DNA of 64,000 bases from Spirochaetia bacterium (GTDB lineage Bacteria > Spirochaetota > Spirochaetia > SZUA-6 > Bin103), in the NCBI GenBank assembly GCA_965243555.1, contig OZ251575.1, positions 864,463-928,462 of the forward strand, given 5' to 3'. The notes below the pieces were generated by a model. The model was not told where the DNA came from. It ran no database searches and saw only the letters and a program-made list of their open reading frames with translations. The translations under genes and the position numbers were made by a program. Positions 3,931 to 29,767 of this stretch are shown piece after piece. Position 1 is the first letter of the stretch. Each line of letters starts with the position of its first letter.

Positions 3931-6900
3931 CTACCCGATCACGTCGTAGTAGGTGTCGGCATCGATCGTGCCAGCGGCCGCGGCCGCATCATACTGCGCT
4001 TGGGTCATACGGATGGCCTGCCGGCTTGCGGGGATCGTGTCGGTATTGCCCTCCTGCGCCCATGAGGTAGCGGGGTCGTCGAGCGTCCACTTCTCGGTAT
4101 CAGCGATCACCGGCACCTTGCCGGCGGCGACCACGGTACCGGCCGCATACCGCAGCCGCTCCGGCACCACCAGCGTGGTGAACGTCCACTTAGCCCCATC
4201 CCAGGTGTAGTCGCCCGGCTCGTACGTCACTGCCCCGATGGTCTGCGCCGCCAGCAAGTTCCCGCGCTCGCCGGTGATCGGCGAGCCCGGGAAGTGTGTC
4301 CAGTCGGGGATACCCTGCATCGCCTTGCGCGCCAAGTCGCGATCGTAGGTCCGCACCCGCTCGGTAGCGTTCACGCCGTTGATCCACCCACCATCTCCGT
4401 ACTGTATGTCGATGCTGTTGGTAAGGTTGCTATCAGATACCCGCTGCGCCCCTACCTGCGCGGTCGTCCAAATAACCGACACGCCAGGTTCTTGTACCGG
4501 AGCTACCTGGAGATCGTCAGATTGATTGCCGTTCACCCAAATCGCGATGGGAAGCCCGTCGCCACTCGTCTGCGGAAGCCGAATGACGTACCGATTCTCT
4601 GATGGCGAACCCGCACGGGTATCGAACTCCAGGCTCGTGATGCCGGGAAGTGGCGCGTTGCTGCGGTAGAGCCCCGGCGTGCCCGGTACCTGCGCGAAGA
4701 CCACGGCGGTGCCCGTCGGCGTCCCTGCCACCTTCTCGCGCACCACCATGCGGAAGTCCACGTCTGCGCTGCCCTCCGCCTCGTTGAAGCCCAAGTCCGG
4801 CTGCGGCGGCGTCCACTGCCGCGGCGTCGTGGTCCCGTCCGCAGCCTTGTCCTGCCATGACAACACGTTTCCGCCGGTATTGATGCTGCCAACGTGCCGC
4901 TCGCGCACGAAGTTCCGAGCGCCCTGCTGCGTCATGACCACCTGCTCGTAGTCTTCCGAGAAACCGAGCCGGTCCGCAACGACCGCGATCGCATCCACGG
5001 AACGAAGATACGCCACGTACAACACGCCATCCGCCTCGGACAGACCGCGCATAGACGAGTTGACCCTCAGCAGGCCCTGCGGCGGCGCCTTTGATGAGTC
5101 ATACACACCAGCGAGACTAAACGGGAAGATCTGCGGCTTGCCTTGTTGGTAGTCGCGGTCGGCCAGATAAAGGTAGCCGTCCCTGTAGTACATGCCGCCC
5201 GCATCCTTGGACTTGGACGCCGCCGCATCGATTACCGCGCGGGACAACGCAGTAAAGCTCAAGTCCCTGTTACCGTCCGCGCCCCACTTCTGCACGCCGT
5301 ACGCAGTGCCCCAAATATAGAAATCCGTCCCATCAGTCGCAAGCGCCTCCGACCCGCCGGTAGCCTGGAACCCCATCGACGGTACCGCCGCCCCGTTGAT
5401 AAAAGCCCCAACCTTTCCGGTACTACCGTTGATCAGGTAAAGGTGGTCTCCCTTCCACGTCAAGCCGCCTGCGTAGTTCGCCCCGATCTCCGCCTCTACT
5501 ACACCCCGAGTAAGAGTGGGGTACTGGTCAGTGTCAGGATCTCCATTCACGAATACACGGACGTCCCTCGTATCTATATCGATAACGGCAACGGTACGAC
5601 CGTCCTTCGCCGCACAACCGGCGAGCTCCGGGACGCGCCCGAAAGCAGCCGTCAGTGCTGTCTCAGATAAGCTATAAGCAGGCGCCGAACGCCACGGGAA
5701 ACTGCCGATCACGAAATTAACGCGTAGCACCACCACGTTTGCCGACGCCAGGAGTCCCTCCTGCTGCGCCGTCAGCCGGCTCGCACTCTTGAACGCCAGG
5801 CCATTCGTGATCACCCTATCGCGTTCCACGGCGATCCTCAGCACAGGAGCAGTCTCCGCGCTAGCTTCGCTGCTCCCTATCCGAATTAGCATGTGGGTAA
5901 TCGTTCCGTGGAAGAGGTTGGCGAGCGTATCCGACACGTCCCCGGGGTTAACCGTGATCTCAAACAGCCCGCGGTCCGCCTGCCCAGCCTCCACGACGCG
6001 CACATACTCGATCCCGCCTTCCTTTCCGTCCGGCAGATCGAACGTCCCGCTGTAGTTGGGCGGGACGTCCCCGGCGTTATAGGACATGCGCACGTAGACC
6101 GGCTGCCCCCGCTCCACCAGGAGGAAGCGCGGCTCGGAGCGCGCGTCAGCAAGGGGTTGCGTATACCGGTGTTCGTTGGACAGGTCGCCGCCCGCCGCCG
6201 CTTCCGGATTGGCCAGACCAATCGCGTACCGGCCTGCGTCGTCCGGCGCGCCAAGCCGAATCCCGGTCCCGGGGGTCGCTACACCACCCGCCCCGATAGC
6301 AGTACGGAACGCCACCTTCTTCGTATCCGTGCCAGCGTCCAGCTTCGCAGGTGTCACCGCGAGCGGCTCCCACGCCTGCCCGTCCGCGGTCTTCGTGAGC
6401 AGCTTCCCGGCATCGTCCGATACGCCCTCAGGAACGAGGCGCGCCGCCGGCGCCAGCGCTTCCACGCGCGCATCGATCTGCTCCTGATCCAGCCCGGCGC
6501 CCGCGAAGGTGAGCGTCACCGTGCTGCCGACCTGCCTCGCGGTGACCCCGTGCCCCTCGAAGTTCAGCTCGGCCACCGTGTTGAGATCCCCGCCTCCCAG
6601 GAGCGTGCCCCCGTCGCGTACGGTGAGACCGGGTAGCGTCAGGTGATAGATGGTGCCGCTGGTGGATGCCAGCGACACCTGCCGGCCGTCGAGCGCAATG
6701 CCGTCGACCTGCACCGCCTTGTCGAGCACCGCGCGGTCCTGCGGCAGCAAGTCAGTGCCGTGACCCACAATCACGTCGAAGGTGATGGTGCGGGCTTGGT
6801 CATCCTCCTCCACGTGGAGGTTCCCCGTGAAGTGCAGTATCTGCTTCAACGCTTGGTAGATGTCCGCCGGCGTCACACCGTTGCTCGGCATCCTTCCTCC

Positions 6901-7593
6901 TCCTCCCGCCACGAGCACCACCCTGCCAAGCTCATACCCACCTCCCACCCCGTATCCCCCCGGCACGGATAACGCCATGCCGGCGGGCTCCTTCGTCGCC
7001 CGCTCCTGGGCATAGCGCGCCACCAAATCTCGATAATCCCGCTGGCGGCGTTCCACCACCGCCTCGTCCCGCTGCATGCGCGCGGCATAGCTCGCCGCGT
7101 AGTACGCCAAGGCCTCGTGATACGCCCCAGACAGCACCGGCTCATCCGTCTCATCCGGCCCAAAGCTGACCGCGTTCTGCGACACCACCAGGTCGACCCT
7201 CCTCCCACCGGGGATCGGAGCATCAAGCCACAGCCGCGGAGGCGTCGCCTGCTCCACCGCGTAGTACGCCGGCGTCCCACCCACTCCACCAAAATCCGGG
7301 TCGCGCAGCACGTCCAGACCAAACCCATTCGTCGTGTCGCCCTCGGCCAGCGGCCGCTGGCGCGCGTCCACGTAGTAGGCCGCCACGATACGGTTCGTGG
7401 CCGCTGGCAGAGCATACGCGCGACCGTCGTCAGAGGCGCCGTGCAGCGTGAGGTCCGTATGTAGCCCGCCCACGTCGCGCGCGAACGCCACGCACGCCTG
7501 CCCCAAGAAAAGGTCCATCATGGCCGTCGTCACGCTGCCGTCGTCCACCTGGGCGAAGGCGTACGCGAACTGCCGCAGCTCACCTCGTGTCAC
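3931..7593 (-). CDS. Large phage tail-fibre or host-specificity-like protein (~1221 aa) with beta-propeller-type repeats.
   Basis: 1281-aa ORF. The probable start is the GTG at 7593, which overlaps the TGA of the upstream gene (GTGA). An internal Met at 7521 is an alternative. It contains repeats of the form YLYL..D / VLYVAYLRSVDAIAVV, as in NHL/YVTN propellers. It shares the motif LSW.K.AADGT.TP..WTP with paralog B1. Confidence 0.55.
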   Translation of the reverse strand: MTRGELRQFAYAFAQVDDGSVTTAMMDLFLGQACVAFARDVGGLHTDLTLHGASDDGRAYALPAATNRIVAAYYVDARQRPLAEGDTTNGFGLDVLRDPDFGGVGGTPAYYAVEQATPPRLWLDAPIPGGRRVDLVVSQNAVSFGPDETDEPVLSGAYHEALAYYAASYAARMQRDEAVVERRQRDYRDLVARYAQERATKEPAGMALSVPGGYGVGGGYELGRVVLVAGGGGRMPSNGVTPADIYQALKQILHFTGNLHVEEDDQARTITFDVIVGHGTDLLPQDRAVLDKAVQVDGIALDGRQVSLASTSGTIYHLTLPGLTVRDGGTLLGGGDLNTVAELNFEGHGVTARQVGSTVTLTFAGAGLDQEQIDARVEALAPAARLVPEGVSDDAGKLLTKTADGQAWEPLAVTPAKLDAGTDTKKVAFRTAIGAGGVATPGTGIRLGAPDDAGRYAIGLANPEAAAGGDLSNEHRYTQPLADARSEPRFLLVERGQPVYVRMSYNAGDVPPNYSGTFDLPDGKEGGIEYVRVVEAGQADRGLFEITVNPGDVSDTLANLFHGTITHMLIRIGSSEASAETAPVLRIAVERDRVITNGLAFKSASRLTAQQEGLLASANVVVLRVNFVIGSFPWRSAPAYSLSETALTAAFGRVPELAGCAAKDGRTVAVIDIDTRDVRVFVNGDPDTDQYPTLTRGVVEAEIGANYAGGLTWKGDHLYLINGSTGKVGAFINGAAVPSMGFQATGGSEALATDGTDFYIWGTAYGVQKWGADGNRDLSFTALSRAVIDAAASKSKDAGGMYYRDGYLYLADRDYQQGKPQIFPFSLAGVYDSSKAPPQGLLRVNSSMRGLSEADGVLYVAYLRSVDAIAVVADRLGFSEDYEQVVMTQQGARNFVRERHVGSINTGGNVLSWQDKAADGTTTPRQWTPPQPDLGFNEAEGSADVDFRMVVREKVAGTPTGTAVVFAQVPGTPGLYRSNAPLPGITSLEFDTRAGSPSENRYVIRLPQTSGDGLPIAIWVNGNQSDDLQVAPVQEPGVSVIWTTAQVGAQRVSDSNLTNSIDIQYGDGGWINGVNATERVRTYDRDLARKAMQGIPDWTHFPGSPITGERGNLLAAQTIGAVTYEPGDYTWDGAKWTFTTLVVPERLRYAAGTVVAAGKVPVIADTEKWTLDDPATSWAQEGNTDTIPASRQAIRMTQAQYDAAAAAGTIDADTYYDVIG

Positions 7594-8540
7594 CCGTAGA
7601 AGACCCGCCCCAGCAGCGCCGCCCGCCGCGTCCTCAGATTCCCGGAGGCCTCCGGGATCGCCACGGCCCGCAGATGCGCCGTGGTCGTCACCGGCCCCAA
7701 TGCGCCGCCAGCAATGTGCCCGATGGCGCCGCCCGAGGGCACGTTCACCGCCGCACCCAGATCCACGTCCACCCACCCCGCGACCTGCACGCTACCGACC
7801 GCGTTGGCGGCAGCGGTCACCGAATAGGTCGGCACGCCATAGACGATCACGCCGCCAGCCACCGCGTCCGCGAGAGCAGGCGCGCCCCCACCGCCGTAAA
7901 CCGCCCTCCAGGTCCCGGTGCGGCCCCGCCGCAACTGGGTAAGCCGACCCCTGGTTAGCCCCAGCGCCGCGTCGACGTCGAGAAACATCCCCCCATAGGA
8001 ATCAGTCAGCAGCGACTGCGACGGCAGCCCGTCAAAATCGCGTATGCGGCCCAGGGAGCGGTACAAGGTCAGCCGCAGATAGTCACCACCGAAAAGGTAC
8101 AGATCCCGGGCGTTTTGCGCCCCGACTTTGGTGTCCGTGATCTCCGCCACGGCCAAGTCAGCGGACGGAAGCCCCGCCGCAAGCGCAGCCGTCAACGCTG
8201 CCCGCGTCCCGCCCCGCACCAGAGCCGAGTCGGTATTCGTGCGAGTCACGGCCGCCGGCAGCGTAACCCCGGAAACGGCGCCATGGATCGCACACGGCAC
8301 CACGTCGTTCTGCTTCCCAGACCCGATGGTCACGCCGAACACACCAAAGCGAGCGCCCGCGCCAAACGTCGCGCTCGCAGCCCACTGCACCTCCCCGCCG
8401 ATCACCTTGTAGGTCAGCTCCACGGCCCGCAACACCGCCGTAGTGCCCGCGTCTTGCAGATGCGCGTGGAGAAAGCACAGGCCGTCCGGCCCCACGAGAG
8501 GCGTCAGCGGCTCCGCACCGCTCGACAGTCCCAGAAACAC
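7590..8540 (-). CDS. Hypothetical phage virion protein (316 aa).
   Basis: Minus-strand ORF lying between the capsid-proximal genes and the tail fibre gene. Gly/Ala/Thr-rich. Confidence 0.5.
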   Translation of the reverse strand: MFLGLSSGAEPLTPLVGPDGLCFLHAHLQDAGTTAVLRAVELTYKVIGGEVQWAASATFGAGARFGVFGVTIGSGKQNDVVPCAIHGAVSGVTLPAAVTRTNTDSALVRGGTRAALTAALAAGLPSADLAVAEITDTKVGAQNARDLYLFGGDYLRLTLYRSLGRIRDFDGLPSQSLLTDSYGGMFLDVDAALGLTRGRLTQLRRGRTGTWRAVYGGGGAPALADAVAGGVIVYGVPTYSVTAAANAVGSVQVAGWVDVDLGAAVNVPSGGAIGHIAGGALGPVTTTAHLRAVAIPEASGNLRTRRAALLGRVFYG

Positions 8541-15800: not shown

Positions 15801-15830
15801 TATCGCCTATGATTACACTTATAGGCGATG
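15801..15830. promoter_or_regulatory. Inverted repeat TATCGCCTAT-N10-ATAGGCGATg overlapping the recombinase start codon and putative promoter (TTGACC at 15790).
   Basis: The arms match 9/10 bp. A -35-like TTGACC lies 5 bp upstream. Candidate operator or recombinase-binding site. Confidence 0.45.
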
Positions 15831-17426: not shown

Positions 17427-17486
17427 ATCCGGCGACGGACGCCGGGCGGCCCCATTCGGGGGCGCCCACCAGGCGTCCCGTCCCTT

Positions 17487-17514
17487 GTCCCAATCTCTTT
17501 TGGGAGATTGGGAC
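17487..17514. repeat. Perfect 11-bp-stem hairpin (GTCCCAATCTC-ttttgg-GAGATTGGGAC), followed by TGGGAC direct repeats.
   Basis: Read directly from the sequence. There is no U-tract on either strand. It lies between the 156-aa ORF and the abiEii 3' end. Confidence 0.5.
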
Positions 17515-17660
17515 ACTGGGACATTGGGGAGTTGCAGCTAAGTAGTAGACAGACTATACATTATCGGTAGTCGTGTACGCTGCCGCGGGCGGGCCGTGTG
17601 CGCCGTAACGAGAGCTCCGGCTACCGAATAAACCCGCCCGCCCGCCCGCTGCGCGGGTCC

Positions 17661-18464
17661 TCAGCCGGCAGCGAGCACCGCTACGAGGTTGGAGCGCTGC
17701 AGCAGGTCGGCGTCGGCGGAGCGCTCCAGGAAAGGACGGACGTCGCCGATGAGCTGACCGACGTCAAGCCCCGCGAGTTGTGCGCGAAGGATCGACCGCC
17801 ACTCCCGCGCCCGGTAGCGGCCGACGCCTTCGGTCTGATCCAGGGCGCTCTGCAGCAACGGCAGATTCGGCTCCACCGGCGGGCGCCGCGTTCGGTACCA
17901 CACCAGATCGTACCAATCCCGGCCCTTCCGGTAGCGGCGGGTCAGGAGCGCGTGCAACTTCCCGGCCATCAGCGACGGCAGATCGTAGTGCGCCACCACG
18001 AAGGTCACGCCGCGTGTTACGATCGTGCGTTCGATGTGCGCCCCGGCGGGCGGGCGGGTGTCGATCTCGATCTTGATGGCGAGTTTCTGTTGCGGATGAC
18101 CGGACAGCCCTGTCTCGGCGAGCAGCGAGGAGGTCCGTACCCACGCTACCTGTACGGTCCGGCGGTCATTCCAGCGAACGGTACTGTCGAAACCGGCGAA
18201 GTGGAGGTCGCGCTTCAGCTTCTCCAACCAGACGCGCGGGTGGTATTCCGCCGCCGAGGTGCGACAGAAGTCGAGGTCCTCGGAGAAGCGCGGCAGATCC
18301 TCCAGCAGCCGGAGCGCGGTACCGCCCACAAACGCCACCGACCGTGACGCTTCGCTCTCGTGCAACGACCTCAGGGTGAAAACCTGGAGGTACTCGCGTA
18401 GCGCGTTGAGGCGTTGCGTGGGGTCGGTGTAGCGCTCGGCGGCGGCGAGCGCCTGCTCCTTCAC
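17661..18464 (-). CDS. abiEii: AbiEii/AbiGii-family nucleotidyltransferase toxin (type IV TA), ~267 aa.
   Basis: Family-typical motifs: FVGGTALRL, LPRFSEDLDF, and the C-terminal DWYDLVW. The GTG start at 18464 overlaps the TGA of abiEi (GTGA). Confidence 0.75.
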   Translation of the reverse strand: MKEQALAAAERYTDPTQRLNALREYLQVFTLRSLHESEASRSVAFVGGTALRLLEDLPRFSEDLDFCRTSAAEYHPRVWLEKLKRDLHFAGFDSTVRWNDRRTVQVAWVRTSSLLAETGLSGHPQQKLAIKIEIDTRPPAGAHIERTIVTRGVTFVVAHYDLPSLMAGKLHALLTRRYRKGRDWYDLVWYRTRRPPVEPNLPLLQSALDQTEGVGRYRAREWRSILRAQLAGLDVGQLIGDVRPFLERSADADLLQRSNLVAVLAAG

Positions 18465-19102
18465 AGTTCCTCGCCTTCGTCGTCGTGCAGGGAGCGGCAC
18501 TCCTGCCACACCCGCACGGCATGCCGAATCCGCGGCTTGCCCATACGCCGCGCAAGGGCGGCGAGGCGGCCAAGGTCGAACAGTTCGGTCTGCTGGAATC
18601 GCATCTCCGCCATCCGGTCGACATCCCACGCGCCGGGCGTCAGGTGGAACAGGTCAAGCAGCGCCTTCTCCACCGTGGCGACGATTGCGTCGCTGCCCGC
18701 GACCCGGACGGTGCGGTACCCGAAGAAGAACTCCCGCTTCACGTTGCGGTAGCTGAACGTGCCGAGCCGGTTCGCGAATTCGCGCGGGGTGCGCGTGGTG
18801 ACGCTGGTGTAGACCGGCACGCTTTCGGGAATCACGCCGTAGAAGCTCAGCGCCCACGCGCCGCTCAGGTAGGACGGGGCGTACAACGCGTTGGCCAGCG
18901 CGGCCGGCGCCAGCGGCGCGCGCCGGTAGCGGTCGGCCAGCGTGTAGCGGCCGCGGCGCAGGGCGACCACCTTGCCGGCCCGGCCCCAGCGGTGGAGCTG
19001 GCTCACCACGCTCGCCCGCGGCGCCGCGCTGAGCTGGGTCACCGTCGCCAAGTCGAACCACGGCTCCGCGCCGAGCAGCTCCACGACCGTGTCAAATCTC
19101 AT
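18461..19102 (-). CDS. abiEi: AbiEi-family antitoxin / transcriptional regulator (213 aa).
   Basis: The N-terminal wHTH-like region and C-terminal domain fit AbiEi (COG5340-like). It is immediately upstream of, and overlapping, the AbiEii toxin gene. Confidence 0.7.
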   Translation of the reverse strand: MRFDTVVELLGAEPWFDLATVTQLSAAPRASVVSQLHRWGRAGKVVALRRGRYTLADRYRRAPLAPAALANALYAPSYLSGAWALSFYGVIPESVPVYTSVTTRTPREFANRLGTFSYRNVKREFFFGYRTVRVAGSDAIVATVEKALLDLFHLTPGAWDVDRMAEMRFQQTELFDLGRLAALARRMGKPRIRHAVRVWQECRSLHDDEGEEL

Positions 19103-19208
19103 AGAGACGCGATCCGTTTACGATAATGTACCAAAGTGATGATTATCGTCAACCAGAGCGTGCGTGCCGCTCCTGTCCGCGCCTGCACGTCCCGGCGGCG
19201 GCTTGCGG

Positions 19209-20756
19209 TCAGCCGGCGGCCACCTCGAAGGCGGTCACGTTGCGAGTCGCGCGGCTGAACTCCACCCCGAGCAGGTGGATCGGCTCGCGCCCGTCCCGGT
19301 ACTTGGCGGCGTAGTCGCGCTCCCGCAACTGCGCCAGCGCGGTCCCCTCCCCCGCCTGCTCCGTTACCTTGAACTCGAACAGGTACACCTGCCCGCCGGC
19401 CCGCACCGCCATGTCCAGCCGCCCGACCGCGCTCGAATCCTCCACCACAATGTCATAGCCCAGCGCCGCGAAGTAGGAGTAGAACACGCTCGCGTAGTAG
19501 CCCTCGTAGCGGGCGATGTCGTTGTTGGAGTGCCACTCATACGGGATGCTCGCAAAGAAGGCGTGGAACAGCTCCCGCAGCCCGGCGCAGTCGGCCGCTT
19601 CCAGCAGGCGCGCCAGGCGGAAGCTGTTGGCCATCTGCCGGTCTCCGTCCCGCACCAGATGGCGCAACAGCACGTCGTTCAGGCTCTGCCGCACCTCCCG
19701 GTTCGGGTAGCCCAGCCGGTACACTGCCCTCCCGCCCAGCTCATCTTCCGCCTTGATCGTCAGGTAGCCGGTCTGGAACAGCAGCGCCTGGGTGCCTATG
19801 TGCTCCACGTCGAACGCCGACAGCAGCTCCTCGGTACCGACCATGTCGGCCAGCGACACGGTGGAGACTCGCCGCTCAAACAGCGTGTCGATCAGGAACG
19901 CCGGCGAGCCGGTCTCGAACCAGTGGGGCTTGAACTTGCGGCTGTCGAACAGCAGCAGCAGGTCAAACGGGTTGTACACCTTCTCGTCGCCCAGCCAGCA
20001 GTACCCGTTGTACCACTCGCGGATGCGATCGCGGTCCAGCCCCGGCAGCTCCGGGGCGAATACGGTGTCCAGGTCTTCTTCGGTGTAGCCGCAGATCGCC
20101 GAGTAGCGCGGGTCCAGCGTGAGGTCGGTGAGGTTGTTGAGGTCGGAGAACAGACTCATCTTGGAGAACTTGCTCACCCCGGTCAGGAAGGTAAAGCGCA
20201 CGTGCGCTTCACTGTCCTTGATCACCCCGTACAGACCGCGCAGGAAGGCGCGGTTGGCGCGGGCTACCTCGGGGGTTTCCAGCGCGTCCAGGATCGGCTT
20301 GTCGTACTCGTCCACCAGCACCGCCGCCTGCTGCCCGGTACGCTCGTGCAGGGCTTCCAGCAGGGATGCGAAACGGCCCGGCGCCGTCAGGTAGTCCGCC
20401 TCCACCCCGTTGCGCCGCTCCACGGCCGCGAGCTGCTCCATGACGTTGTCCCGCAACAGTCCCGGCTCCCTGAAACTGCCGCCGCCGAAGCTGAGCCGCA
20501 CCACGGGATGGCGCTGCGACCAGTCATGGCGTCCGTGGACGTGGAGCCCCTCGAACAATGCCTTGCTGCCCTCGAACAGCTCCTTGAGCGTGTCCAGAAA
20601 CAGACTCTTGCCGAACCGCCGCGGCCGCGACAGAAAGTAGTGCGTGCCCCCGTCGAGCAGACGTTCGACGTAGGGCGTCTTGTCCACGTAGTAACAATTC
20701 CGCTTGCGGAGCGTGCGGAAGGTCTGGATGCCGGTGGGCAGCCTGCGCCGGACCAT
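19209..20756 (-). CDS. Paralog A1: AAA-ATPase-like N-terminal domain plus C-terminal PD-(D/E)XK nuclease-like domain (~515 aa).
   Basis: N-terminus MVRRRLPTGIQTFRTLRKRNCYYVDKT..YFLSRPRRFGKS (the predicted-ATPase family signature). The C-terminus has D...FEFK (PD-(D/E)XK). I trimmed the track ORF to the Met homologous to the A2/A3 start. Confidence 0.7.
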   Translation of the reverse strand: MVRRRLPTGIQTFRTLRKRNCYYVDKTPYVERLLDGGTHYFLSRPRRFGKSLFLDTLKELFEGSKALFEGLHVHGRHDWSQRHPVVRLSFGGGSFREPGLLRDNVMEQLAAVERRNGVEADYLTAPGRFASLLEALHERTGQQAAVLVDEYDKPILDALETPEVARANRAFLRGLYGVIKDSEAHVRFTFLTGVSKFSKMSLFSDLNNLTDLTLDPRYSAICGYTEEDLDTVFAPELPGLDRDRIREWYNGYCWLGDEKVYNPFDLLLLFDSRKFKPHWFETGSPAFLIDTLFERRVSTVSLADMVGTEELLSAFDVEHIGTQALLFQTGYLTIKAEDELGGRAVYRLGYPNREVRQSLNDVLLRHLVRDGDRQMANSFRLARLLEAADCAGLRELFHAFFASIPYEWHSNNDIARYEGYYASVFYSYFAALGYDIVVEDSSAVGRLDMAVRAGGQVYLFEFKVTEQAGEGTALAQLRERDYAAKYRDGREPIHLLGVEFSRATRNVTAFEVAAG

Positions 20757-20769
20757 TCGTTCTCTTACC

Positions 20770-22662
20770 TCACACCCACGCCAGCAGCTCAAAGACGGTG
20801 TTGGCAAGCAACGTTTCGCCGTTGCCCACCAGGTAGACGATGTCCTTATCCGTATTAACCGTAGTGCCCGACCATTCCCGTTGTAACACTATCTTGACCC
20901 TGCGAACGGTGGCATCGTTCGTGGCCGACACCAGGTAGACGTTTGCGCCCAACCCGGTAACCCTTTGGTTCCACAGGACAGACGCCGCGAATCCCGTCCA
21001 CGGCAGAACCACTTCGGAGACTACCGCCGCACCGATCTTGACGCGAAACACGAGACCCAACCACGAATTCGGCAGCCGCCGCGGAACGTTCATCTCGCTT
21101 ACCCCACGCGCCGGTGACACCAGGTCGAATCCTGCGGGCGCCGTCCCCTCGATGACCCAGTTGACCGGCGGAAGCGTAGACGCGGAGTACAAGCCGGCGG
21201 CGGGCGACAGCGTCGCTATCAGCGCGCCGACGTGATTCGGCGTCCACGCCGCCGGCGTCTCGGTGCCGTCCGCAGCGACTTTGACCCACGAAAGCGTGCC
21301 GGCGGTCTCGTCCAGGCTCTTGACGTGCTGCTCGCGCGCCTCCGCCTGCAGCCGCGCCTTGCTCATGGTGCGGTAGCCGTACAACGACGCCTCAGGGTAT
21401 GCCGTAACCGCCTTCGACGCCGTAAACGCGGCCACGTAAAACCCGACGTCGCCCAAGTACAGAATCCCAGCAGCAGGGTCGTATGCCGCCCCCGTCAACC
21501 CGCGAAAGCCGGACCGGCCTGCCGTTACCTGCGAACCGGTGAGGGTAAGCCCCGGAACTTCTTTACCGGTGGCTACGTTGTAGGCGTACACCGCGTCTCC
21601 GCTGCCCCCGTAGATCAGCACGTCCCCTACGAACGTCGCAGCGCCGACCCCCTCCGTTCCCGGCAGCTTCACGTGCTTGGTAGCCGTGCCGCTCTTGAAC
21701 ACGCGCGCAAGACCGAACCCGTCAATCACCCACAGATCGTTGTCGTGCCATGCCATACACCACACGCTTCCCAACCTGCCAACGGCCAACTTGGAAACTT
21801 TGATCTCGTCCCCGGCCACCTCCTCGGGCCTTTGCTCAGCCGTTCCGGGGTGCGACAACCTGAACACCTTGATCGGCTTACGGTACCCGTCCGCCGTAAT
21901 CGCGAGCTTTTTGCTGGTGTGGTTGTAGGACAGTCCATGGACCGGAGCAACACCAGTCCCGGTGATGTCCGCGCCGGGAAACCTGCGACCGTTCTTGAAC
22001 GCGAAGACTCTGCCCGAACGAGTACTGCCAACGAGGACCACGCCATTCTCAACGACTTCCAAGGCGCCTGGCTTGATCCTGCCCAACTCAGTCGCATCAA
22101 TGTCCTTGCTGCTATCTCGGTTCCACCCCGTTACCGCGCCATGCGTGAGCCGAAAATTGATCCTCACGTATGCCGGGGCCTCAGTGCTCAGCACAGCAGG
22201 ATCGCCGCCAAGCGCCTCCGCGGTGACGATCGCCAGGGTATCGGTGGTCCCCGTGTCCTTGATCACCTTCTCAATGCTCTTCCTATCCGTCACCGCCGCC
22301 TCCGCAGTGGCGCCCATCTGCAAGATAAGCGCATCGACCGTGCCGGCGGCGAACAGGTTGGCCAGCGTCCGAGAGGCGTCATGCGGCAAAGTCGTCACCT
22401 TGAACTTGCCGGCGTCCCGGTTGCCGCTCGTACCCACGCGCACGTAGGAAAACTGCGCAGTCACCGCCCCGTCCGCGCTAATCGGGAACGTGCCCTGATA
22501 GGTCCGCGTCCGGGCGTTGTGCTCCAGCCGCACTACGTGAGGATCGGACTTCTGAATCGCCTCCAGACGCCACTCTTTGACCGGATCAAGCGCCCGTTGC
22601 GCGAACTTGTCGGCTGCGGCCAATTCACGGCCGGCTTGCGGCCGGGGATTGGTAACCGCCAC
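20770..22662 (-). CDS. Paralog B1: large protein (630 aa) with a beta-propeller-repeat body related to the phage tail protein, plus the conserved B-family C-terminal domain.
   Basis: GTG start per the track. The body shares repeats and the motif LSWVKVAADGTETPAAWTP with the 3931..7593 tail protein (NVLSWQDKAADGTTTPRQWTP). The C-terminal ~110 aa are homologous to B2 and B3. The 5' end sits out of frame behind a leader module. Confidence 0.55.
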   Translation of the reverse strand: MAVTNPRPQAGRELAAADKFAQRALDPVKEWRLEAIQKSDPHVVRLEHNARTRTYQGTFPISADGAVTAQFSYVRVGTSGNRDAGKFKVTTLPHDASRTLANLFAAGTVDALILQMGATAEAAVTDRKSIEKVIKDTGTTDTLAIVTAEALGGDPAVLSTEAPAYVRINFRLTHGAVTGWNRDSSKDIDATELGRIKPGALEVVENGVVLVGSTRSGRVFAFKNGRRFPGADITGTGVAPVHGLSYNHTSKKLAITADGYRKPIKVFRLSHPGTAEQRPEEVAGDEIKVSKLAVGRLGSVWCMAWHDNDLWVIDGFGLARVFKSGTATKHVKLPGTEGVGAATFVGDVLIYGGSGDAVYAYNVATGKEVPGLTLTGSQVTAGRSGFRGLTGAAYDPAAGILYLGDVGFYVAAFTASKAVTAYPEASLYGYRTMSKARLQAEAREQHVKSLDETAGTLSWVKVAADGTETPAAWTPNHVGALIATLSPAAGLYSASTLPPVNWVIEGTAPAGFDLVSPARGVSEMNVPRRLPNSWLGLVFRVKIGAAVVSEVVLPWTGFAASVLWNQRVTGLGANVYLVSATNDATVRRVKIVLQREWSGTTVNTDKDIVYLVGNGETLLANTVFELLAWV

Positions 22663-22820
22663 ACCTTCGGCTCGCCCGTAATCGCTACCGCCTGCGTCTC
22701 CTTCCCGCTCGAAATGATGACGTTCGTAGCCGCAAGCAGTGCCTCATTATGCCGCAGTGCAGCCTCGAACTCGGAGGGCTGTGGGTTCGATTGCCGTCTC
22801 GGCCCCGTAGGTCGCAGCAT
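22533..22820 (-). pseudogene. Leader-module ORF (MLRPTGPRRQSNPQPSEFEAALRHNE...) that runs out of frame into the B1 body.
   Basis: AGGAGG-N8-ATG leader near-identical to the B2 5' end. The reading frame is offset by 1 nt from the B1 frame. This may be a recombination junction, a frameshifted gene, or a site of programmed frameshifting. Confidence 0.35.
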
Positions 22821-22824
22821 CAGC
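22778..22824. repeat. Conserved leader-module core (type I) upstream of B1.
   Basis: About 47 bp (CGATTGCCGTCTCGGCCCCGTAGGTCGCAGCATCAGCTCCACCTCCT) near-identical to 24606..24652. It contains the RBS and start of the leader peptide. Confidence 0.7.
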
Positions 22825-23107
22825 TCCACCTCCTTGCATCTTTGCATCTTTGCGCAGCCGCGCCGTAGCGTGCCAGTTCAGACCCATTCGTATACCTCAA
22901 TGGTTGCTTGGGCCGGAATCTCATTGCCATTACCACGCACGTCAAGCTTGTGTCCGCGCGGTCCGGGTCGGCATCCGGTACCTTCGGCGTGCCCGGAATC
23001 GCTACCGCTACCGACTCCTTCCCGCTCGGAATGGTGACGTTCGCCGCCGCCGTAAGCAGTTGCTCGTCGTACCGTAGCGCCTGCTCGAACTCAGCCCGCC
23101 CTACCAC
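22820..23107 (-). pseudogene. Truncated B3-type 5' gene fragment (VGRAEFEQALRYDEQLL...DPDR, then divergent).
   Basis: It matches the B3 N-terminal ~50 aa and diverges after DPDR. It is preceded by a type II leader carrying ACG in place of the ATG. Confidence 0.4.
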
Positions 23108-23177
23108 TTGGCACTCGCCTCAATCTGCCCCCGCACCGGCGGCTGCGCTATCGGCCGCCGGTGGCGGGGCCGGGGGT

Positions 23178-23224
23178 TGATGGCCGTTTCGGCCCGTAGG
23201 GTCGCAACGTCAGGTCCACCTCCT
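23178..23224. repeat. Conserved leader-module core (type II, with start codon mutated to ACG) upstream of the truncated B fragment.
   Basis: Near-identical to 29628..29677. Confidence 0.7.
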
Positions 23225-24638
23225 ATACCCATGCGCGCAATTCGAAAGTGGTATTGGTCTTGATAGGCGTGTTGTTGCCAATTACAAATAGCGCATCCTT
23301 GCGTGGACGGATGTACTCTCGCTGCAGCGCCAACTTGATGTTGCGCCTCGTCCTGTCATCGGTCGCATTGATGATGTAAACTGATGTACCCAAATGGTCT
23401 TCGACTTCGCTTTGCCAGGCTGATCCTGTCCGGAAAGGCAACCACGGGACGTACACCCTCTCTATTACCTTCACCCCGACCTTCACCACGACGACCAACC
23501 CCAACCAGGATTCCGGAAGCACCCTGGGAACGTTCATCGAACCGAAGACATGCGGCGGGCCGACCCGGTCGAAGCCCGTCGGAATGCCGCTTGAAAACAC
23601 CCAGTCGGCTCCGGGGCGCGCGCTAGCCCCTGGCGTTCCCGCCGGCCACTCTAGTGTTGCTACCAAGGCCCCCACGTGAGTCCTCGGGGCCGCGTCCGTG
23701 GGTGAAAGGGATACGCCAAGGTCCGCGGTGATGCGGAACGTGCGAGACTCCGCTGCTCCCTGGTAGGTCCAGTAGTAGCCGGTGGTGTTGTTGGCGTTGC
23801 GGCCAAGGTAGAAGTGAACTTCGCCGAGCTTGACGTTCGACCGGTACACGCCTACGCCGCCGCCGATCTCCAGCCCCTCCACGGGGTCGCCAACTTCCCA
23901 ACTCGCCACCGCCGCAAGCTCCGAGAGAAAGACAATCTCGGTGATGTCGTGCGTCCTATTATTGTCGGTGGTGAAGCCAATATCGTCGGTCCTGCCGCCG
24001 CCGGTGATCGTCAGGGTCAGCGACACGTACAGCTCTCCGCGGTTGTAGTCGTCCAGGTCCAATGGCGTGCTGAACGGAATCAGCGCGGCACCACTAACTT
24101 GGTTGTCGGAGCTGTCATTCACGTCAAGGGCAGCGATGGTGGCGCGATCTTCCAGCACGGTGAGGCGCGGAACAGGGGGCAGCTTTACCGCCGCGATCTT
24201 CGACGCGTTCGAACGGCGCGCCCACGGTTCAAGGTCAATCGAAGACACCGTGATCGCTACCGAGTAGGTGCCCGCCCGATCCGCGGAGAACAGGAACTGC
24301 GAATCGGTCGACCGCGCCAGCATGCAGAGCGTGCTGCCCATCGAATGCACGACGGCGTTCTTTGAATTCAGCTCCGCGCCGCGCGTAACTACCGGCTTCG
24401 CCAGCAAGGCCGACAGGTCGAACCGCACGGCGCTGACGCCCACCTTCCATATCACCTCACGGTCCGGGTCGGCATCCGGCACCTTCGGACTGTCCGTGAT
24501 CAATGCCGCCTGCGTCTCCGACCCGTTTTGAATGGTCACGCTCTTCGCCGCAGGCCATGGCTCGTTATGCCGTAGCGCCGCCTCGAACTTGGAGGGCTGT
24601 GAGTTCGATTGCCGTCTCGGCCCCGTAGGTCGCAACAT
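23223..24638 (-). CDS. Paralog B2 (~471 aa): fused leader, B-type body, and conserved C-terminal domain.
   Basis: AGGAGG lies 8 nt before the ATG at 24638. The N-terminus is MLRPTGPRRQSNSQPSKFEAALRHNE. The body is homologous to B3. The C-terminus is homologous to B1 and B3 (NVPRVLPESWLGLVV...FELRAWV). Confidence 0.55.
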   Translation of the reverse strand: MLRPTGPRRQSNSQPSKFEAALRHNEPWPAAKSVTIQNGSETQAALITDSPKVPDADPDREVIWKVGVSAVRFDLSALLAKPVVTRGAELNSKNAVVHSMGSTLCMLARSTDSQFLFSADRAGTYSVAITVSSIDLEPWARRSNASKIAAVKLPPVPRLTVLEDRATIAALDVNDSSDNQVSGAALIPFSTPLDLDDYNRGELYVSLTLTITGGGRTDDIGFTTDNNRTHDITEIVFLSELAAVASWEVGDPVEGLEIGGGVGVYRSNVKLGEVHFYLGRNANNTTGYYWTYQGAAESRTFRITADLGVSLSPTDAAPRTHVGALVATLEWPAGTPGASARPGADWVFSSGIPTGFDRVGPPHVFGSMNVPRVLPESWLGLVVVVKVGVKVIERVYVPWLPFRTGSAWQSEVEDHLGTSVYIINATDDRTRRNIKLALQREYIRPRKDALFVIGNNTPIKTNTTFELRAWV

Positions 24639-24652
24639 CAGGTCCACCTCCT
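24606..24652. repeat. Conserved leader-module core (type I) at the B2 5' end.
   Basis: Matches 22778..22824. Confidence 0.7.
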
Positions 24653-24717
24653 TACATCTCTCTGTGCCGATAGTAGCTCACCTCGCCGTCCACCGCCACC
24701 GTGCCACCCACCGCAAT

Positions 24718-26583
24718 CTAGTCGTTGTCCAGGATGGTGACGGTCGCCGTGCACCGCCCCCCGCAGGTTACGTTGGTACTGTGAGGCCGATCATCAGTTG
24801 GGGTCAGGCCGATTTCCTCCAGATCGCGCGTGCTGAGCGGGCCGATGTGCAGCTGGAACGTCTCCGTCTCTTCTTTGACGAGATCGCCGACTATGCGAAA
24901 CTGAATTTCTTGTGAACACCGAGGGTCATCGTCGCCCGGCGCACGACTGCAAGGGGGGTTCCCGGTGAAGTAGCCCCAAACAAAGTCGATGATTCCGCTA
25001 CGTAAATTAATAGGAAAAAGAATCGTGTAGTCGGTGCCAGAGCAGCTTCCCGAAGGGGTGTGCTGCGTCCGGGGTGAGGTGCACGGGGTTGCCGTGCCCG
25101 GCGTAGCCCAGTATTTGAAATACAAGTGCTCGGGGATTGAGGTCACATTAAGGTATATCTTGACCTGTACCCATCCGTTCTCGTAGCCTTCGGTTAAAGT
25201 ATCGTCGCGTTCCGTAAAGGTATAGGTCAGGTCGGCGAACGAGATCGTCGGCGGCGTCTCCTCGGCCGGTGGAGGGACTGGGGCCGGCGGCTCCGCGGTT
25301 GGCGGCGCCGGCTGCTCGGCCGGTGGCGGCGCTGGGGCGGTGGTGAACGACCACACCTTGCCAAAGCCCTCTAACCCGCTTTCGTTCAAGGCATCCACCA
25401 TCCAATAGTAGCGCGTTTCGGGCGCCAGCTCCGCCGACGTGGGGATCCTCAAGAAGGTAGACGTGGTTCGAGTCGACCTGTTCCGCCAAAGGAGCTCACT
25501 TGTGGTGCTCCAGTACACATTGTAGTGGGTAGCGCGGGGCGCGGCGGCCCAACTCAAAAGCGGCCCGGCAACCGTCACGCCGGTCGCCCCGTCGCGCGGC
25601 TGCGGGTTGCTGGCATATCCGGGAGCGCGTATGGTGGTGAACGACCACACGTTGCCGCGGATGGTGCCGGCTTCGGTCTTTACGTCCACCCGCCAGTAAT
25701 AGCGCGTTTCCCACAGCCGAGGCGCCCAGGCGCCAACCTCATAGGAGTTGTTCACGGTATTGAGCGGCCATTCCGTACCCTCAAGGCCGTCCGCGGGGAG
25801 ATCGTTCGTGGTGCCCATGTAGAAGTCGTAGCTGAGAGCGCCGGGCGCGGCGTCCCAACTGAAAGTTACTGCGCCGCGGCTCACGCCGGTCGCCCCGTTG
25901 CGGGGCGACGGGTTCCTGGCAGCTCCGGGAGGGCCGGTTGCGGGCGGCGGAGCACCGTCGCCCGGCGGCGGACTCGGAGCCGGCGGCGTCTCATCGCCCG
26001 GGGCCGGACCTGGGGCGGGCGGCGTTTCATCGTCGCGCGGCGACGGACCCACGGTCGGCGGCGCGGGCCGGCCGGCGGGGATGGTCGGCGCCACGTCGTC
26101 CGGCAGGGTTTCCAGGTCGAAGTCATCCGGCAGGTCGATCACTCGCGCTATGCACTCGTCGTTGGTGTTGACCACGCAGCTCGAGCCGTCGGCGCGGCGG
26201 CTGAGGACGTACAACCGATTACCGCCGGGGTAACGGATCACGATCAGATAGTACTGCGACTGCTGCGCCTGCTCGGTCCGGCCGTCCGGCACCGACAAGC
26301 CGGCCTGCAGCGACTGATTCGCGGGGTCCATGCAGGTGGCCGGCGCGGTGGCGCCGCCCATGTGCAGCTTGTCGGAGACGATCGCGCCGTGGACTCCCGC
26401 GCCGCGGTCGAGCAGCCGAATTGCCGAGTCGTCGCACGAGGCCTGCGGCGCGGCCGGCGCCGGGTTCGCCGCAGTCTCCGGCTCCGGGTCCGGGGTGACC
26501 GCCGCCCCGCAGGCGGCCAGGATTGCGGTCAGCGCGAACAGCGCCGCCCACCGTGTCCACAAGCGTTTCGTTGTCTTTATCAT
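24718..26583 (-). CDS. Paralog L1: secreted lipoprotein (~621 aa) with a Pro-rich linker, FN3-like repeats, and a C-terminal Calx-beta-like domain.
   Basis: Signal peptide plus lipobox (LTAILAAC). YYWRVD...VWSFTT FN3-like motifs occur twice. The C-terminal TVTILDND resembles a Calx-beta end. The first ~230 aa are near-identical to L2. I trimmed the start to MIKTTKRLW. Confidence 0.6.
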   Translation of the reverse strand: MIKTTKRLWTRWAALFALTAILAACGAAVTPDPEPETAANPAPAAPQASCDDSAIRLLDRGAGVHGAIVSDKLHMGGATAPATCMDPANQSLQAGLSVPDGRTEQAQQSQYYLIVIRYPGGNRLYVLSRRADGSSCVVNTNDECIARVIDLPDDFDLETLPDDVAPTIPAGRPAPPTVGPSPRDDETPPAPGPAPGDETPPAPSPPPGDGAPPPATGPPGAARNPSPRNGATGVSRGAVTFSWDAAPGALSYDFYMGTTNDLPADGLEGTEWPLNTVNNSYEVGAWAPRLWETRYYWRVDVKTEAGTIRGNVWSFTTIRAPGYASNPQPRDGATGVTVAGPLLSWAAAPRATHYNVYWSTTSELLWRNRSTRTTSTFLRIPTSAELAPETRYYWMVDALNESGLEGFGKVWSFTTAPAPPPAEQPAPPTAEPPAPVPPPAEETPPTISFADLTYTFTERDDTLTEGYENGWVQVKIYLNVTSIPEHLYFKYWATPGTATPCTSPRTQHTPSGSCSGTDYTILFPINLRSGIIDFVWGYFTGNPPCSRAPGDDDPRCSQEIQFRIVGDLVKEETETFQLHIGPLSTRDLEEIGLTPTDDRPHSTNVTCGGRCTATVTILDND

Positions 26584-26663
26584 CGTCAGTCTCCTCTCGG
26601 AACGGTCGCCAGTGCCCTGGGTATAACCCAGCGAGCGAGCGAATCTCCTGCGCGGCTCTGGTC

Positions 26664-28076: not shown

Positions 28077-28107
28077 CGTCAGTCTCCTCTCCGCACTAAC
28101 GGGGTTG

Positions 28108-29556
28108 TCATATCCACTGGAGCAGCTCGATGGAGGTGCCGGCCTTGATCTGCTCGGCGTTGCCCACGACCTCGAGGCGGTCCTTCGTCGTACTGGCCCA
28201 CTCGCGTTGCAGCACCAGCTTCACGGTGCGTGCCGTGGAGTCGTCACTTACGAGCAAATGGAATACGTTCGTGCCGAAGGGGGAGGGTCCTATCCGACTG
28301 TCCCAGGCAACGTCTTCGTGGATGGGGACCCAGGGAAGGAATACCTGCGACACCGTATTGGTGGTGCCCACCTTCGTCCGCACTACCACGCCCGCCATGT
28401 TATCCGGCAGCACCCTCGGAACGTTCAACTGCCCGTTGCTGCCTCCGGTCGCTTCGAAATCACGGGGAGCCCCGCTTTGCACCACCCAGGCCGCAGCCGG
28501 GCGCGCATTCGCCGCTAGCGTGCCGGCAGGAATGTCAAGCTTGGCAATCAACGGTCCGACGTGTCCGGTAGACGAAGTAGCCGCGGGCGCGTCAGTCCGC
28601 GAGAACGACACCTCCATCGTGGCGGTCAGTGTCACATCCGACCCGCTCGTCCCGCCACCGGAGTAGCGCAGCAGGTAACCGAGCTCGTTGTTGGCGTTCT
28701 TGGCAAAGTAGAACGACAGCAGACCCAGTTGGTTGAAGCTATCGTGCAGGTACACGCTGGAACCGACCGGCTCCCCGTGAAAGGGCCCACTGCTCACGTA
28801 CGTACCCAGTGCAGATACATCCGATGCCAACACTACTCCGTCGAACGTGTAGGTACGGTCCTCGTTCGTGCCGAAACCGGCCACTAGCACCGAACGATCG
28901 TCGAAGGTAACCGTCATCACCACGTGCAACTCGCCGGTCCGGTGTTCGTCCAGATCGAATGCCGGCGCCAGCGCCCTGAACGAGCCGGTTGACATGCTGT
29001 TGGTGTTATGGATGCGCATCCCGACAGCCCTCCCGGCGTGCAGAATCTGCAGCCCGGTCAGCTTCCGCACGCGCGCGTCGACCTGTGCCTGCGTCAGCCA
29101 CGGCGACGGCAGATTCGCCGCCGCGACCTTCGTCGCGTTCGACCGGCGCGCCCACGGTTCAAGGTCAATCGAGGACACCGCGAGCTCCACCGAGTAGGTG
29201 TCCGCCCGGTCCGCGGAGAACAGGAACTGCGAAGCGGCCGTCTCCGACGCGGCCGTCCGCGCCAGCATGCAGAGCGTGCTGCCCACCGAGAACACGACGG
29301 AGTTGGTTGAATCCAAGACCGTGGTCGTCGTAACTGTCACCGCCGGCTTCGCCCGCAACGCGGACAGGTCGAACCGCACGGTGCTGCCGTCCACCGTCCA
29401 TATCACCTCACGGTCCGGGTCGGCAGCCGGCACCTCCGGCGTGCCCGGAATCGCTACCACTACCGATTCCTTCCCGCTCGCAATGGTAACGGCCGTAGCC
29501 GGGAGCAGTTGCTCGTCGTACCGTAGCGCCCCCTCGAACTCGGCACGCGCTACCAT
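28108..29556 (-). CDS. Paralog B3 (482 aa): B2-like body and conserved C-terminal domain, preceded by a leader uORF.
   Basis: Its ATG lies within AAATGGTAG and overlaps the uORF stop. The N-terminus MVARAEFEGALRYDEQLL is homologous to the B2 segment SKFEAALRHNE. The body (STLCMLAR..SSIDLEPWARRSNA) is homologous to B2. The conserved C-terminus ends ..ELLQWI. Confidence 0.55.
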   Translation of the reverse strand: MVARAEFEGALRYDEQLLPATAVTIASGKESVVVAIPGTPEVPAADPDREVIWTVDGSTVRFDLSALRAKPAVTVTTTTVLDSTNSVVFSVGSTLCMLARTAASETAASQFLFSADRADTYSVELAVSSIDLEPWARRSNATKVAAANLPSPWLTQAQVDARVRKLTGLQILHAGRAVGMRIHNTNSMSTGSFRALAPAFDLDEHRTGELHVVMTVTFDDRSVLVAGFGTNEDRTYTFDGVVLASDVSALGTYVSSGPFHGEPVGSSVYLHDSFNQLGLLSFYFAKNANNELGYLLRYSGGGTSGSDVTLTATMEVSFSRTDAPAATSSTGHVGPLIAKLDIPAGTLAANARPAAAWVVQSGAPRDFEATGGSNGQLNVPRVLPDNMAGVVVRTKVGTTNTVSQVFLPWVPIHEDVAWDSRIGPSPFGTNVFHLLVSDDSTARTVKLVLQREWASTTKDRLEVVGNAEQIKAGTSIELLQWI

Positions 29557-29663
29557 TTGGCACCCGCCTCAATCCGCTCCCGCACCGGCGGCGGCGCTAT
29601 CAGCCGGCCGCGGCGGGGGCTGGGGCCCGATGGCCGTTTCGGCCCCGTAGTAGGTCGCAACAT
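29550..29663 (-). CDS. Leader uORF (37 codons, MLRPTTGPKRPSGPSPRRGRLIAPPPVRERIEAGAKW) upstream of B3, translationally coupled to it.
   Basis: AGGAGG lies 8 nt before the ATG. Its stop TAG overlaps the B3 start (ATGGTAG). It is the same leader as B2, with a ~75-nt insertion. Confidence 0.35.
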   Translation of the reverse strand: MLRPTTGPKRPSGPSPRRGRLIAPPPVRERIEAGAKW

Positions 29664-29677
29664 CAGGTCCGCCTCCT
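29628..29677. repeat. Conserved leader-module core (type II) at the 5' end of the B3 uORF.
   Basis: Matches 23178..23224. Confidence 0.7.
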
Positions 29678-29767
29678 GCATCCGTGCCCGGTCGTCGGAC
29701 AGTGCGAGCTCCAGGATTGGGTGTATCCATGCGCGTGTCAACCCGGCAAGCCCGGCCGGCCGGCGGG

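Follow-up and report, generated by a model that had tools for sequence, protein, structure and literature searches.

The locus described here raises the question of whether an array of bacterial genes and the tail protein of a neighbouring prophage are truly related and, if so, whether the array serves that prophage or has been taken over by its host. The window, that is, the whole stretch of 64,000 nucleotides (nt) that was analyzed (positions 864,463 to 928,462 of contig OZ251575.1, Spirochaetia bacterium, assembly GCA_965243555.1), encodes both a prophage tail protein and an open reading frame (ORF), here termed B1, with two paralogs, B2 and B3. A preliminary description, made from the sequence alone, had proposed that the body of B1 is homologous to the beta-propeller region of the tail protein, and that the B proteins are either alternative tail-fibre modules or phage-derived binding proteins exapted by the host. 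Sequence comparison indicates that the homology is real, but that the evidence for it is located in the flanks of the propeller and not in its repeats, and that the link between B1 and the prophage tail protein is an old one.

Pairwise and profile alignments of B1 against the tail product are both significant. BLASTP yields two blocks, one between B1 residues 1-170 and tail-ORF residues 519-688 (32% identity, E 2e-16) and the other between B1 428-475 and tail-ORF 943-990 (42% identity, E 3e-7), and a profile of the B1 family matches the tail protein at E 4.8e-27, at the block preceding the propeller. The profile of this pre-propeller (pre-body) domain alone reaches E 2.7e-17, and that of the post-propeller linker E 1.8e-3. 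The two pairwise blocks are collinear, with a spacing between them of 257 amino acids (aa) in B1 and 254 in the tail protein, and the second contains the motif LSW..AADGT..TP..WTP, which had been put forward as shared and is present in both proteins (B1 LSWVKVAADGTETPAAWTP vs tail LSWQDKAADGTTTPRQWTP). For the propeller itself the claim of homology does not fare as well as for the pre-body domain and the linker. A profile of B1 176-426, the propeller alone, gives no significant match to the tail protein (E 0.28, probability 0.2%). Pairwise BLASTP without composition correction recovers 104 aa of this stretch at 23% identity (E 3e-4), and its Smith-Waterman score of 62 compares with 38.5 +/- 6.2 for shuffled sequences (z ~3.8), with one of 300 shuffles scoring as high. 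One of the two repeat pairs originally reported, DNDLWVIDGFGLARVF / GDHLYLINGSTGKVGAF, falls within the best local alignment, but the other does not stand, B1 YDPAAGILYLGD aligning with tail YYRDGYLYLAD instead; the tail segment GDHLYLINGSTGKVGAF is moreover paired with different B1 blades by BLASTP and by Smith-Waterman, which leaves the register ambiguous.

In the AlphaFold2 model of B1, residues 41-175 form a beta-rich domain, and residues 176-427 are modelled as a beta-propeller of serial four-strand units with a predicted local distance difference test (pLDDT) of ~85-95. When this model was compared with the PDB using Foldseek, WD40-type propellers were retrieved at E ~1e-9 (3e-9 and below), and these generic propellers were the only matches, masking the other domains of B1. 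Given the significant flanks, the near-equal length of the spacer and the propeller fold of B1, the homology with the tail protein is likely to extend over the entire body. Generic propeller repeats as the sole source of the similarity were considered and are ruled out by the significance of the flanking domain and linker.

A record identical to B1 (630 aa) is present in an NCBI/ENA genome. As judged from the DNA upstream of its GTG, B1 is nevertheless a 5'-deleted copy of a longer gene, a circumstance missing from the preliminary description. A stub resembling the 5' ends of intact genes at 82-92% identity meets the GTG at 22662 in another frame, at the deletion junction, and 400 nt and 352 nt are missing by comparison with the intact homologues of loci L006 and L003, respectively. 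Both losses are of the form 3n+1, so that the reading frame is broken. The copy is therefore probably defective and would, at best, be translated from the internal GTG.

The gene from which B1 was derived belongs to a modular family. Among 5.8 billion proteins, 24 relatives of B1 and 45 of B3 were found, all of them metagenomic except for one source genome, and the family (B1-B3 and ~65 metagenomic relatives) is that of a high-GC uncultured Spirochaetia lineage; the window has ~68% G+C, and the S1 ribosomal protein encoded in it shares 95% identity with its counterpart in the genome of an uncultured 'Spirochaetia bacterium' (OZ241863.1). Full-length relatives of B1 measure ~800-1040 aa and open with an N-module of ~150 aa (MLRPTGPRRQS..FEAALR..PDADPDREVIW..LCMLARS..FLFSAD..SSIDLEPWARRS), which also forms the N-terminus of B2 and B3. 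The architecture of the family is N-module, body and C-terminal domain, in strings of independently folding all-beta domains. Bodies consist either of the pre-body domain and a beta-propeller or of a jelly-roll-like domain, and C-termini are either of the B type or of a 'tail' type ending in ..MTQAQYDA...YVIVG. The B1-type body is found with the B-type C-terminus (..NVPR.LP..LPW..LQRE..GN..ELLAWV) and also with the tail-type C-terminus ending in ..VKMTQAQYDAATAAGTI..LYVIVG (alignment A1), and the N-module and B C-terminus are likewise combined with a different body, as in B2 and B3 (alignment A3). One relative, P0012, matches the window tail protein in three blocks, the last 100 aa (the tail-type end) being 50% identical.

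The ratio of nonsynonymous to synonymous substitution rates (dN/dS) ranges from 0.27 to 0.77 and lies below 1 in nearly all modules, and the synonymous rate varies among modules of a single pair, amounting for B1 and P0003 to 0.23 in the propeller and 0.03-0.12 after it. All chromosomal copies have in common the sequence from the Shine-Dalgarno site through the leader, every intact copy is provided with a start codon and a ribosome-binding site of its own, and a sigma-70-like promoter site (TTGACA-17-TATACT) precedes some copies, the best preserved; a promoter and terminator scan of 17000-33500 revealed no excess of sites over shuffled sequence. No signal peptide was found in the B proteins. 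In B3-type genes (also in L058, upstream of P0040), a 73-nt insertion makes the family leader (MLRPTTGPKRPS...) a separate upstream ORF of 37 codons, and the overlap of its stop with the B3 start, ATGGTAG, suggests translational coupling.

The connection of the B paralogs with phage tail machinery, which had been suggested from the B1 resemblance, proved stronger than first seen. The window tail protein is encoded in a podovirus-like structural block (1255-15289), and residues 80-260 of its ORF match the SU10-type adaptor PF24175 (30.5 bits vs a gathering threshold of 27), its only Pfam match. Synteny links this block to L004, a circular metagenomic contig of 43.9 kb that encodes P0026 (portal 65% and major capsid protein 56% identical), and P0026 and P0027 are the only relatives of the tail protein besides itself, their adaptor and shaft being 45% identical to it. 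After the shaft, P0026 and P0027 carry two N-modules, a B2/B3-type body and then, at the extreme C-terminus, the B C-terminal domain, which is therefore part of related phage tail proteins. B2 and B3 match the distal third of both proteins and the internal N-module; B3 162-482 aligns with P0027 886-1203 at 34% identity (E 9e-44), and the match to P0026 has an E of 4e-35. Two other proteins, P0044 and P0061, begin with a different N-terminus, which by eye looks like a head-tail connector domain, and continue with the same shaft, N-module, body and B C-terminus; their genes lie in elements of ~12-13 kb that encode the large terminase (TerL), HNH, portal, HK97-type capsid protein and S78 protease. 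The modules are carried in one polypeptide, behind a virion-attachment domain, by two lineages of phages or phage-like elements, one podovirus-like with an SU10-type adaptor and the other a small HK97-like element with a putative connector domain (adaptor- or connector::fibre fusions at window 3931-7593 (-), L004 10001-13642, L008 6683-8884 and L054 1997-5308).

B1 477-630 aligns with B2 at 45% identity (E 4e-31) and with B3 at 40% (E 7e-31), so that the conserved C-terminal region noted previously is a genuine shared domain, although its length is ~155 aa (alignment A4) and not the ~110 aa given for it. Its profile matches 89 clusters among 1.84 billion representative proteins, and in ~30 of the best 40 matches (E <= 1e-10; proteins of 300-2500 aa) the domain lies within a few residues of the C-terminus. 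Proteins that carry it are almost blank in Pfam and PHROGs, one of them having tail-fibre and PRD1 P5-like segments. The models of B1 and B3 show the domain as all-beta (pLDDT ~75-90). Profile search detected no relative of it in the PDB; with Foldseek, the B3 model returned nothing below E 0.007 from the PDB, and from BFVD weak jelly-roll capsid matches and a few phage matches, the fold matches of the domain itself being weak jelly-roll or lectin-like. An intramolecular chaperone of the Peptidase_S74 kind was rejected, since a domain made of beta strands only is of the wrong fold class and B1-B3 have no Pfam match to that family at E <= 0.01. The roles first considered for the domain, namely attachment, trimerisation or chaperone activity, are also made unlikely by its placement at the extreme C-terminus of the phage proteins. 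Because the virion-attachment domain of those proteins is at the opposite, N-terminal end, we read the B C-terminal domain, from its position and fold, as the distal tip, and on the same grounds the modules would constitute the distal, host-recognising part of an appendage, with a putative function in receptor binding.

In contrast to these phage proteins, the B genes have a chromosomal setting. A tyrosine integrase gene (15828-16817, +) directly follows TerL, and a 33-nt motif (GTAGACAGACTATACATTATCGGTAGTCGTGT, 17544-17576) recurs in a related genome (L010, 5659-5691), where it borders an insertion in a Bcp-like gene that is 5'-truncated. This motif probably marks where the prophage, or an element related to it, ends; no tRNA gene marking an integration site was found in the window. 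An AbiEii toxin/AbiEi antitoxin pair, which is an abortive-infection defence, lies at 17661-19102 (-), between the integrase gene and the B array, and synteny with three related genomes resumes at 32926. Integrase, motif, AbiE and resumed synteny thus place the array between the probable prophage end and the core genome, and B1-B3 outside the prophage structural block, on the far side of the integrase gene, of the putative end of the element and of AbiE. None of the three has an adaptor or connector part, whereas the tail protein has PF24175. Along the minus strand, the array reads AAA3, AAA2, B3, lipoB, lipoA, B2, stub, stub::B1, AAA1 (Table 1).

Both lipoproteins encoded between B2 and B3 have a signal peptide and lipobox (LAAC), a Cys-containing N-domain, a Pro-rich linker, Ig/Fn3-like repeats and a variable C-terminus, and in Pfam they obtain sub-threshold matches only, weakly Ig_Rha78A_N-like. 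Their genes overlap by 37 nt; the N-terminal halves of these paralogs are 85-95% identical and the C-terminal domains differ. At six independent loci, a B gene and a lipoprotein gene lie side by side in the same orientation. The orders observed elsewhere are four AAA genes, lipoprotein-B and lipoprotein-frameshifted B (L003); AAA, B and then housekeeping genes (L005 and L001); AAA, B and a lipoprotein::B1 fusion (L006); AAA, B and PolX (L057); and an SMC_N/AAA_15/AAA_21 ATPase, AAA, two B genes and a lipoprotein gene (L058). In L056 (5028-8268), the F1Fo ATP synthase operon is interrupted between atpG and atpD by a B-like gene, split into ORFs of 334 and 291 aa, and a gene of the lipoprotein family (455 aa), in the same orientation. 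The fusion of L006, a close strain (P0003, 5425-7449), joins a lipoprotein signal peptide, N-domain and Pro-rich linker to B1 163-630 with a junction overlap of 15 nt; the lipoprotein part is 91% identical to window 26664-28076 and the B1 part 87%, and a deletion within a window-like array would produce such a fusion. The chromosomal copies have, as their sequences indicate, lost the attachment domain, and occur in a dispersed, non-phage and lipoprotein-associated setting.

Table 1. Coordinates of the B array, its modules and the prophage genes discussed in the text (positions in the window).
Feature	Position	Strand	Remarks
B1 ORF	20770..22662	minus	630 aa, GTG start; 5'-truncated member of the B family
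B1 pre-propeller (pre-body) domain, aa 1-175	22138..22662	minus	Homologous to tail-ORF 519-688
B1 beta-propeller (predicted), aa 176-427	21382..22137	minus	AlphaFold2 and Foldseek; ~five or six four-stranded blades
B1 post-propeller linker with LSWVKVAADGTETPAAWTP, aa 428-476	21235..21381	minus	E 3e-7; low pLDDT
B-type C-terminal all-beta domain, B1 aa 477-630	20773..21234	minus	Common to B2, B3, P0026, P0027, P0044 and P0061
5'-end remnant of the family	22662..22841	minus	Shine-Dalgarno site, ATG at 22820, 52 N-module codons; repeat family D12
Second N-module 5' remnant, degenerate	22954..23224	minus	Start codon mutated to ACG; repeat families D9, D13, D15
B2	23223..24647	minus	N-module, B2/B3-type body, B C-terminal domain
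B3	28108..29556	minus	N-module, B2/B3-type body, B C-terminal domain
37-codon upstream ORF with family leader (MLRPTTGPKRPS...)	29550..29663	minus	Overlaps B3 start in ATGGTAG
Two paralogous lipoprotein genes between B2 and B3	24718-26700, 26664-28076	minus	
AAA-ATPase_like + PDDEXK_9 gene adjoining B1	19209..20807	minus	
AAA-ATPase_like + PDDEXK_9 paralogs	29768-31315, 31340-32884	minus	
Prophage tail protein	3931..7593	minus	1220 aa annotated; ORF 3931..7776; SU10-type adaptor, shaft, pre-body, propeller-length region, tail-type C-terminus
Tail segment homologous to B1 pre-body, ORF aa 519-688	5713..6222	minus	BLASTP and profile
Tail segment with LSWQDKAADGTTTPRQWTP, ORF aa 943-990	4807..4950	minus	BLASTP
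Major capsid protein	9007-9963	minus	
Portal, SU10/P22-type	11284-13131	minus	PF23899, PF16510
Large terminase	13535-15289	plus	

Some additional features of these genes and elements can be recorded here. The tandem AAA-ATPase_like + PDDEXK_9 paralogs (also in L003, 1800-8060) are 80-90% identical in DNA, flank B genes at nearly every locus and often coincide with the breaks of metagenome contigs; a literature search on AAA-ATPase_like/PDDEXK_9 found nothing relevant. Within the structural block of the prophage, ~ten tandem 18-nt units (10677-10910) lie inside an ORF (9976-10896, -) between the portal and capsid genes, the position expected for a scaffold. The small elements that encode the putative connector::fibre fusions (L008, 11.8 kb, and L054, 12.1 kb) comprise no more than that fusion, TerL, HNH, a portal, an HK97-type capsid protein, an S78 protease, one protein of 355 aa and a handful of small genes, in gene orders that are circular permutations of each other, and they may be capsid-forming satellites, mini-phages or gene-transfer-agent-like elements.

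Searches for relatives beyond this family were negative. B1, B2 and B3 have no match in Pfam, PHROGs, PADLOC or NCBIfam, and only chance-level matches in the PDB, by sequence and by profile. No match to B1 was obtained with tblastn in 50,697 GenBank phage records, and scans of IMG/VR with the B1 family, the tail protein and the N-module, of GTDB genomes with the B1 family and of JGI metagenomes with the N-module found nothing. Two established means of fibre switching were also ruled out. Invertible cassettes or a shufflon are contradicted by the uniform minus orientation of the B genes, between which there are no inverted repeats, and by a tyrosine integrase (15828-16817) being the sole recombinase found; for a diversity-generating retroelement, no template/variable repeat pair exists in 1-37000, a region whose ORFs were not exhaustively scanned for reverse transcriptase.

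Taken together, these results make it fairly probable, in our judgement, that the array is a pool of binding modules of phage origin, subject to turnover by recombination within a variable chromosomal island, and that the 5'-deleted B1 belongs to it. In the chromosomal copies, new combinations arise where modules adjoin, through recombination and deletion. The intact members B2 and B3 would be made as cytoplasmic proteins without signal peptide, their partner being either phage-type particles or the lipoproteins always encoded alongside. The origin and architecture of the B family are well supported, and its cellular role we only infer. Several observations weigh against this reading. The propeller status of tail-ORF 689-942 is putative, although its length and collinear position match B1, and the structure models derive from shallow alignments (25-29 sequences) with a low predicted template modelling score (0.39-0.49). 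B1 is only 32% identical to the window tail protein, no recent exchange with the prophage being visible, and N-modules are 60-80% identical among chromosomal copies and ~35% identical to phage ones, so that the chromosomal family looks long-resident and not actively traded with phages. In addition, the comparison sequences are nearly all metagenome assemblies of a repeat-rich locus, in which misassembly is possible, and the prophage boundary was drawn from one 33-nt motif and the position of the integrase gene.

As to whether the B genes are spare parts of this prophage or have been exapted by the host, the two possibilities named in the preliminary description, the evidence leans away from the former, given that they lie outside the prophage, have no attachment domain, are but distantly related to its tail protein and belong to a dispersed family. 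A broader version, in which their products serve in trans as alternative or additional fibres, either of the adjacent prophage or of other resident phage-like particles, docking through the conserved N-module and changing or broadening host range, has some arguments in its favour: a conserved N-terminal module followed by variable distal parts is the classic layout of a receptor-binding protein, the N-module directly follows the shaft in phage proteins, proteins with no signal peptide would stay in the cytoplasm, where virions are assembled, and the array begins ~1.6 kb past the putative prophage end. Yet B1 is devoid of the N-module and so is the window tail protein, loci L003, L005 and L056 have no phage genes within 10 kb, no free-standing B gene occurs in the 23.6 kb read of phage contig L004 and identity to the phage copies is only ~35%, all of which leads us to regard fibres supplied in trans as quite unlikely. 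Still far less credible is that the array represents functionless, decaying debris of earlier prophage integrations at a hotspot, the resemblance of B1 to the tail protein being a relic. The truncation of B1 with two N-module fragments alongside, the frameshifted or split copies in L003 and L056, the high dN/dS and the location between prophage end and core genome would all fit such decay, but dozens of members from many samples are intact and full-length, with a conserved Shine-Dalgarno site and leader and, in some, a promoter-like site, dN/dS stays below 1 in almost every module, B genes are at no locus accompanied by other phage structural genes and the pairing with lipoprotein genes is recurrent.

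That pairing is central to the remaining alternative, which we consider unlikely as it stands, namely that host-domesticated B genes act with the lipoproteins, and perhaps with the AAA-ATPase/PD-(D/E)XK proteins, at the cell surface or in defence against phages. The B proteins might mask receptors, act as a decoy or poison subunit towards the fibres of incoming phages, or provide variable surface display. Adjacency of B and lipoprotein genes at six independent loci, including the atpG/atpD insertion, speaks for domestication, as do the fusion protein P0003, where the propeller and C-terminal domain of B1 follow the leader, N-domain and Pro-rich linker of a lipoprotein, the AbiE defence pair that adjoins the array, the SMC_N/AAA_15/AAA_21 ATPase beside the L058 array, the grouping of chromosomal N-modules on their own and the sharing of a locus by receptor-binding genes and exclusion factors in known phages (PMC11990801). 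Against it must be set that B proteins have no signal peptide, that PADLOC is blank for the B, lipoprotein and AAA proteins, that the fusion occurs in one metagenomic contig and is explicable by simple deletion between neighbouring genes, that pseudogenes and fragments are frequent (B1, L003, L056) and that the phage loci read (L004, L008, L054) contain no lipoprotein homologue. In a stronger form, to which we likewise give little credence, the B and lipoprotein pair, often with an AAA-ATPase/PD-(D/E)XK gene, would be a mobile, host-domesticated unit that re-uses phage receptor-binding modules; such pairs would then have reached chromosomal sites unrelated to one another, the ATP synthase operon among them, and candidate purposes would be variable surface display (as in P0003), the masking or mimicking of phage receptors, or the poisoning or sensing of incoming phage fibres.

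Whichever its role, the phage-derived pool of modules favoured here can be set beside several known systems. Modular phage receptor-binding proteins, such as T7 gp17 and the tailspikes of SP6/K1-5 and Klebsiella phages, combine a conserved N-terminal anchor with horizontally swapped distal domains. The B-family and phage proteins show the same domain-wise mosaicism of conserved proximal and variable distal modules, and P0026, P0027, P0044, P0061 and the window tail protein are encoded within a phage structural gene block. They differ in that the fibre forms one polypeptide with a portal adaptor or connector, and the B genes in that they are chromosomal and dispersed, carry no attachment domain and have no detectable sequence relative in Pfam, PHROGs, the PDB or GenBank phage records. 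The N-terminus of the window tail protein matches the adaptor of phage SU10 (PF24175), and the portal is of the SU10/P22 type, but ~1000 further fibre residues are fused to the adaptor in the window tail protein, and B1 has no adaptor part. In Staphylococcus phage phi11, the receptor-binding protein Gp45 contains a five-bladed beta-propeller platform, and B1 resembles it in having a small propeller between a stem-like part and a distal domain of a putative host-recognition protein; in contrast, Foldseek with B1 gave generic WD40 propellers and no specific sequence or fold match. Alternative distal fibre segments are likewise stored side by side in the Mu G segment with Gin, the P1 C segment with Cin, shufflons and diversity-generating retroelements, but the copies described here are co-oriented, have, where intact, their own start codons and ribosome-binding sites and are accompanied by neither inverted repeats nor an invertase. 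Finally, T5-like and small siphoviruses encode pairs of a receptor-binding gene and a superinfection-exclusion lipoprotein (pb5/Llp; PMC11990801). Here too binding-protein and lipoprotein genes are repeatedly adjacent and vary together (six loci, lipobox LAAC), but the lipoproteins are multi-domain proteins of 450-700 aa, unlike the small Llp kind, and the pairs are chromosomal, no lipoprotein gene being found in the phage loci read.

The homology between B1 and the tail protein would, on its own, be ordinary, since domain shuffling in phage fibres is well known. Less ordinary is that, in two lineages of phages from an uncultured group of high-GC spirochaetes, the host-recognition fibre is fused to the portal adaptor or to a connector, and that a chromosomal multi-copy family of the same modules exists that has no attachment domain, keeps its own ribosome-binding site and leader, is constantly paired with surface-lipoprotein genes and has no detectable relatives in Pfam, PHROGs, NCBIfam or the PDB. 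If this pairing is functional, these bacteria would be retaining and moving binding modules of phages for use at their own surface or in their own defence, and the family would offer an entry point to the receptors of the phages that infect uncultured spirochaetes.

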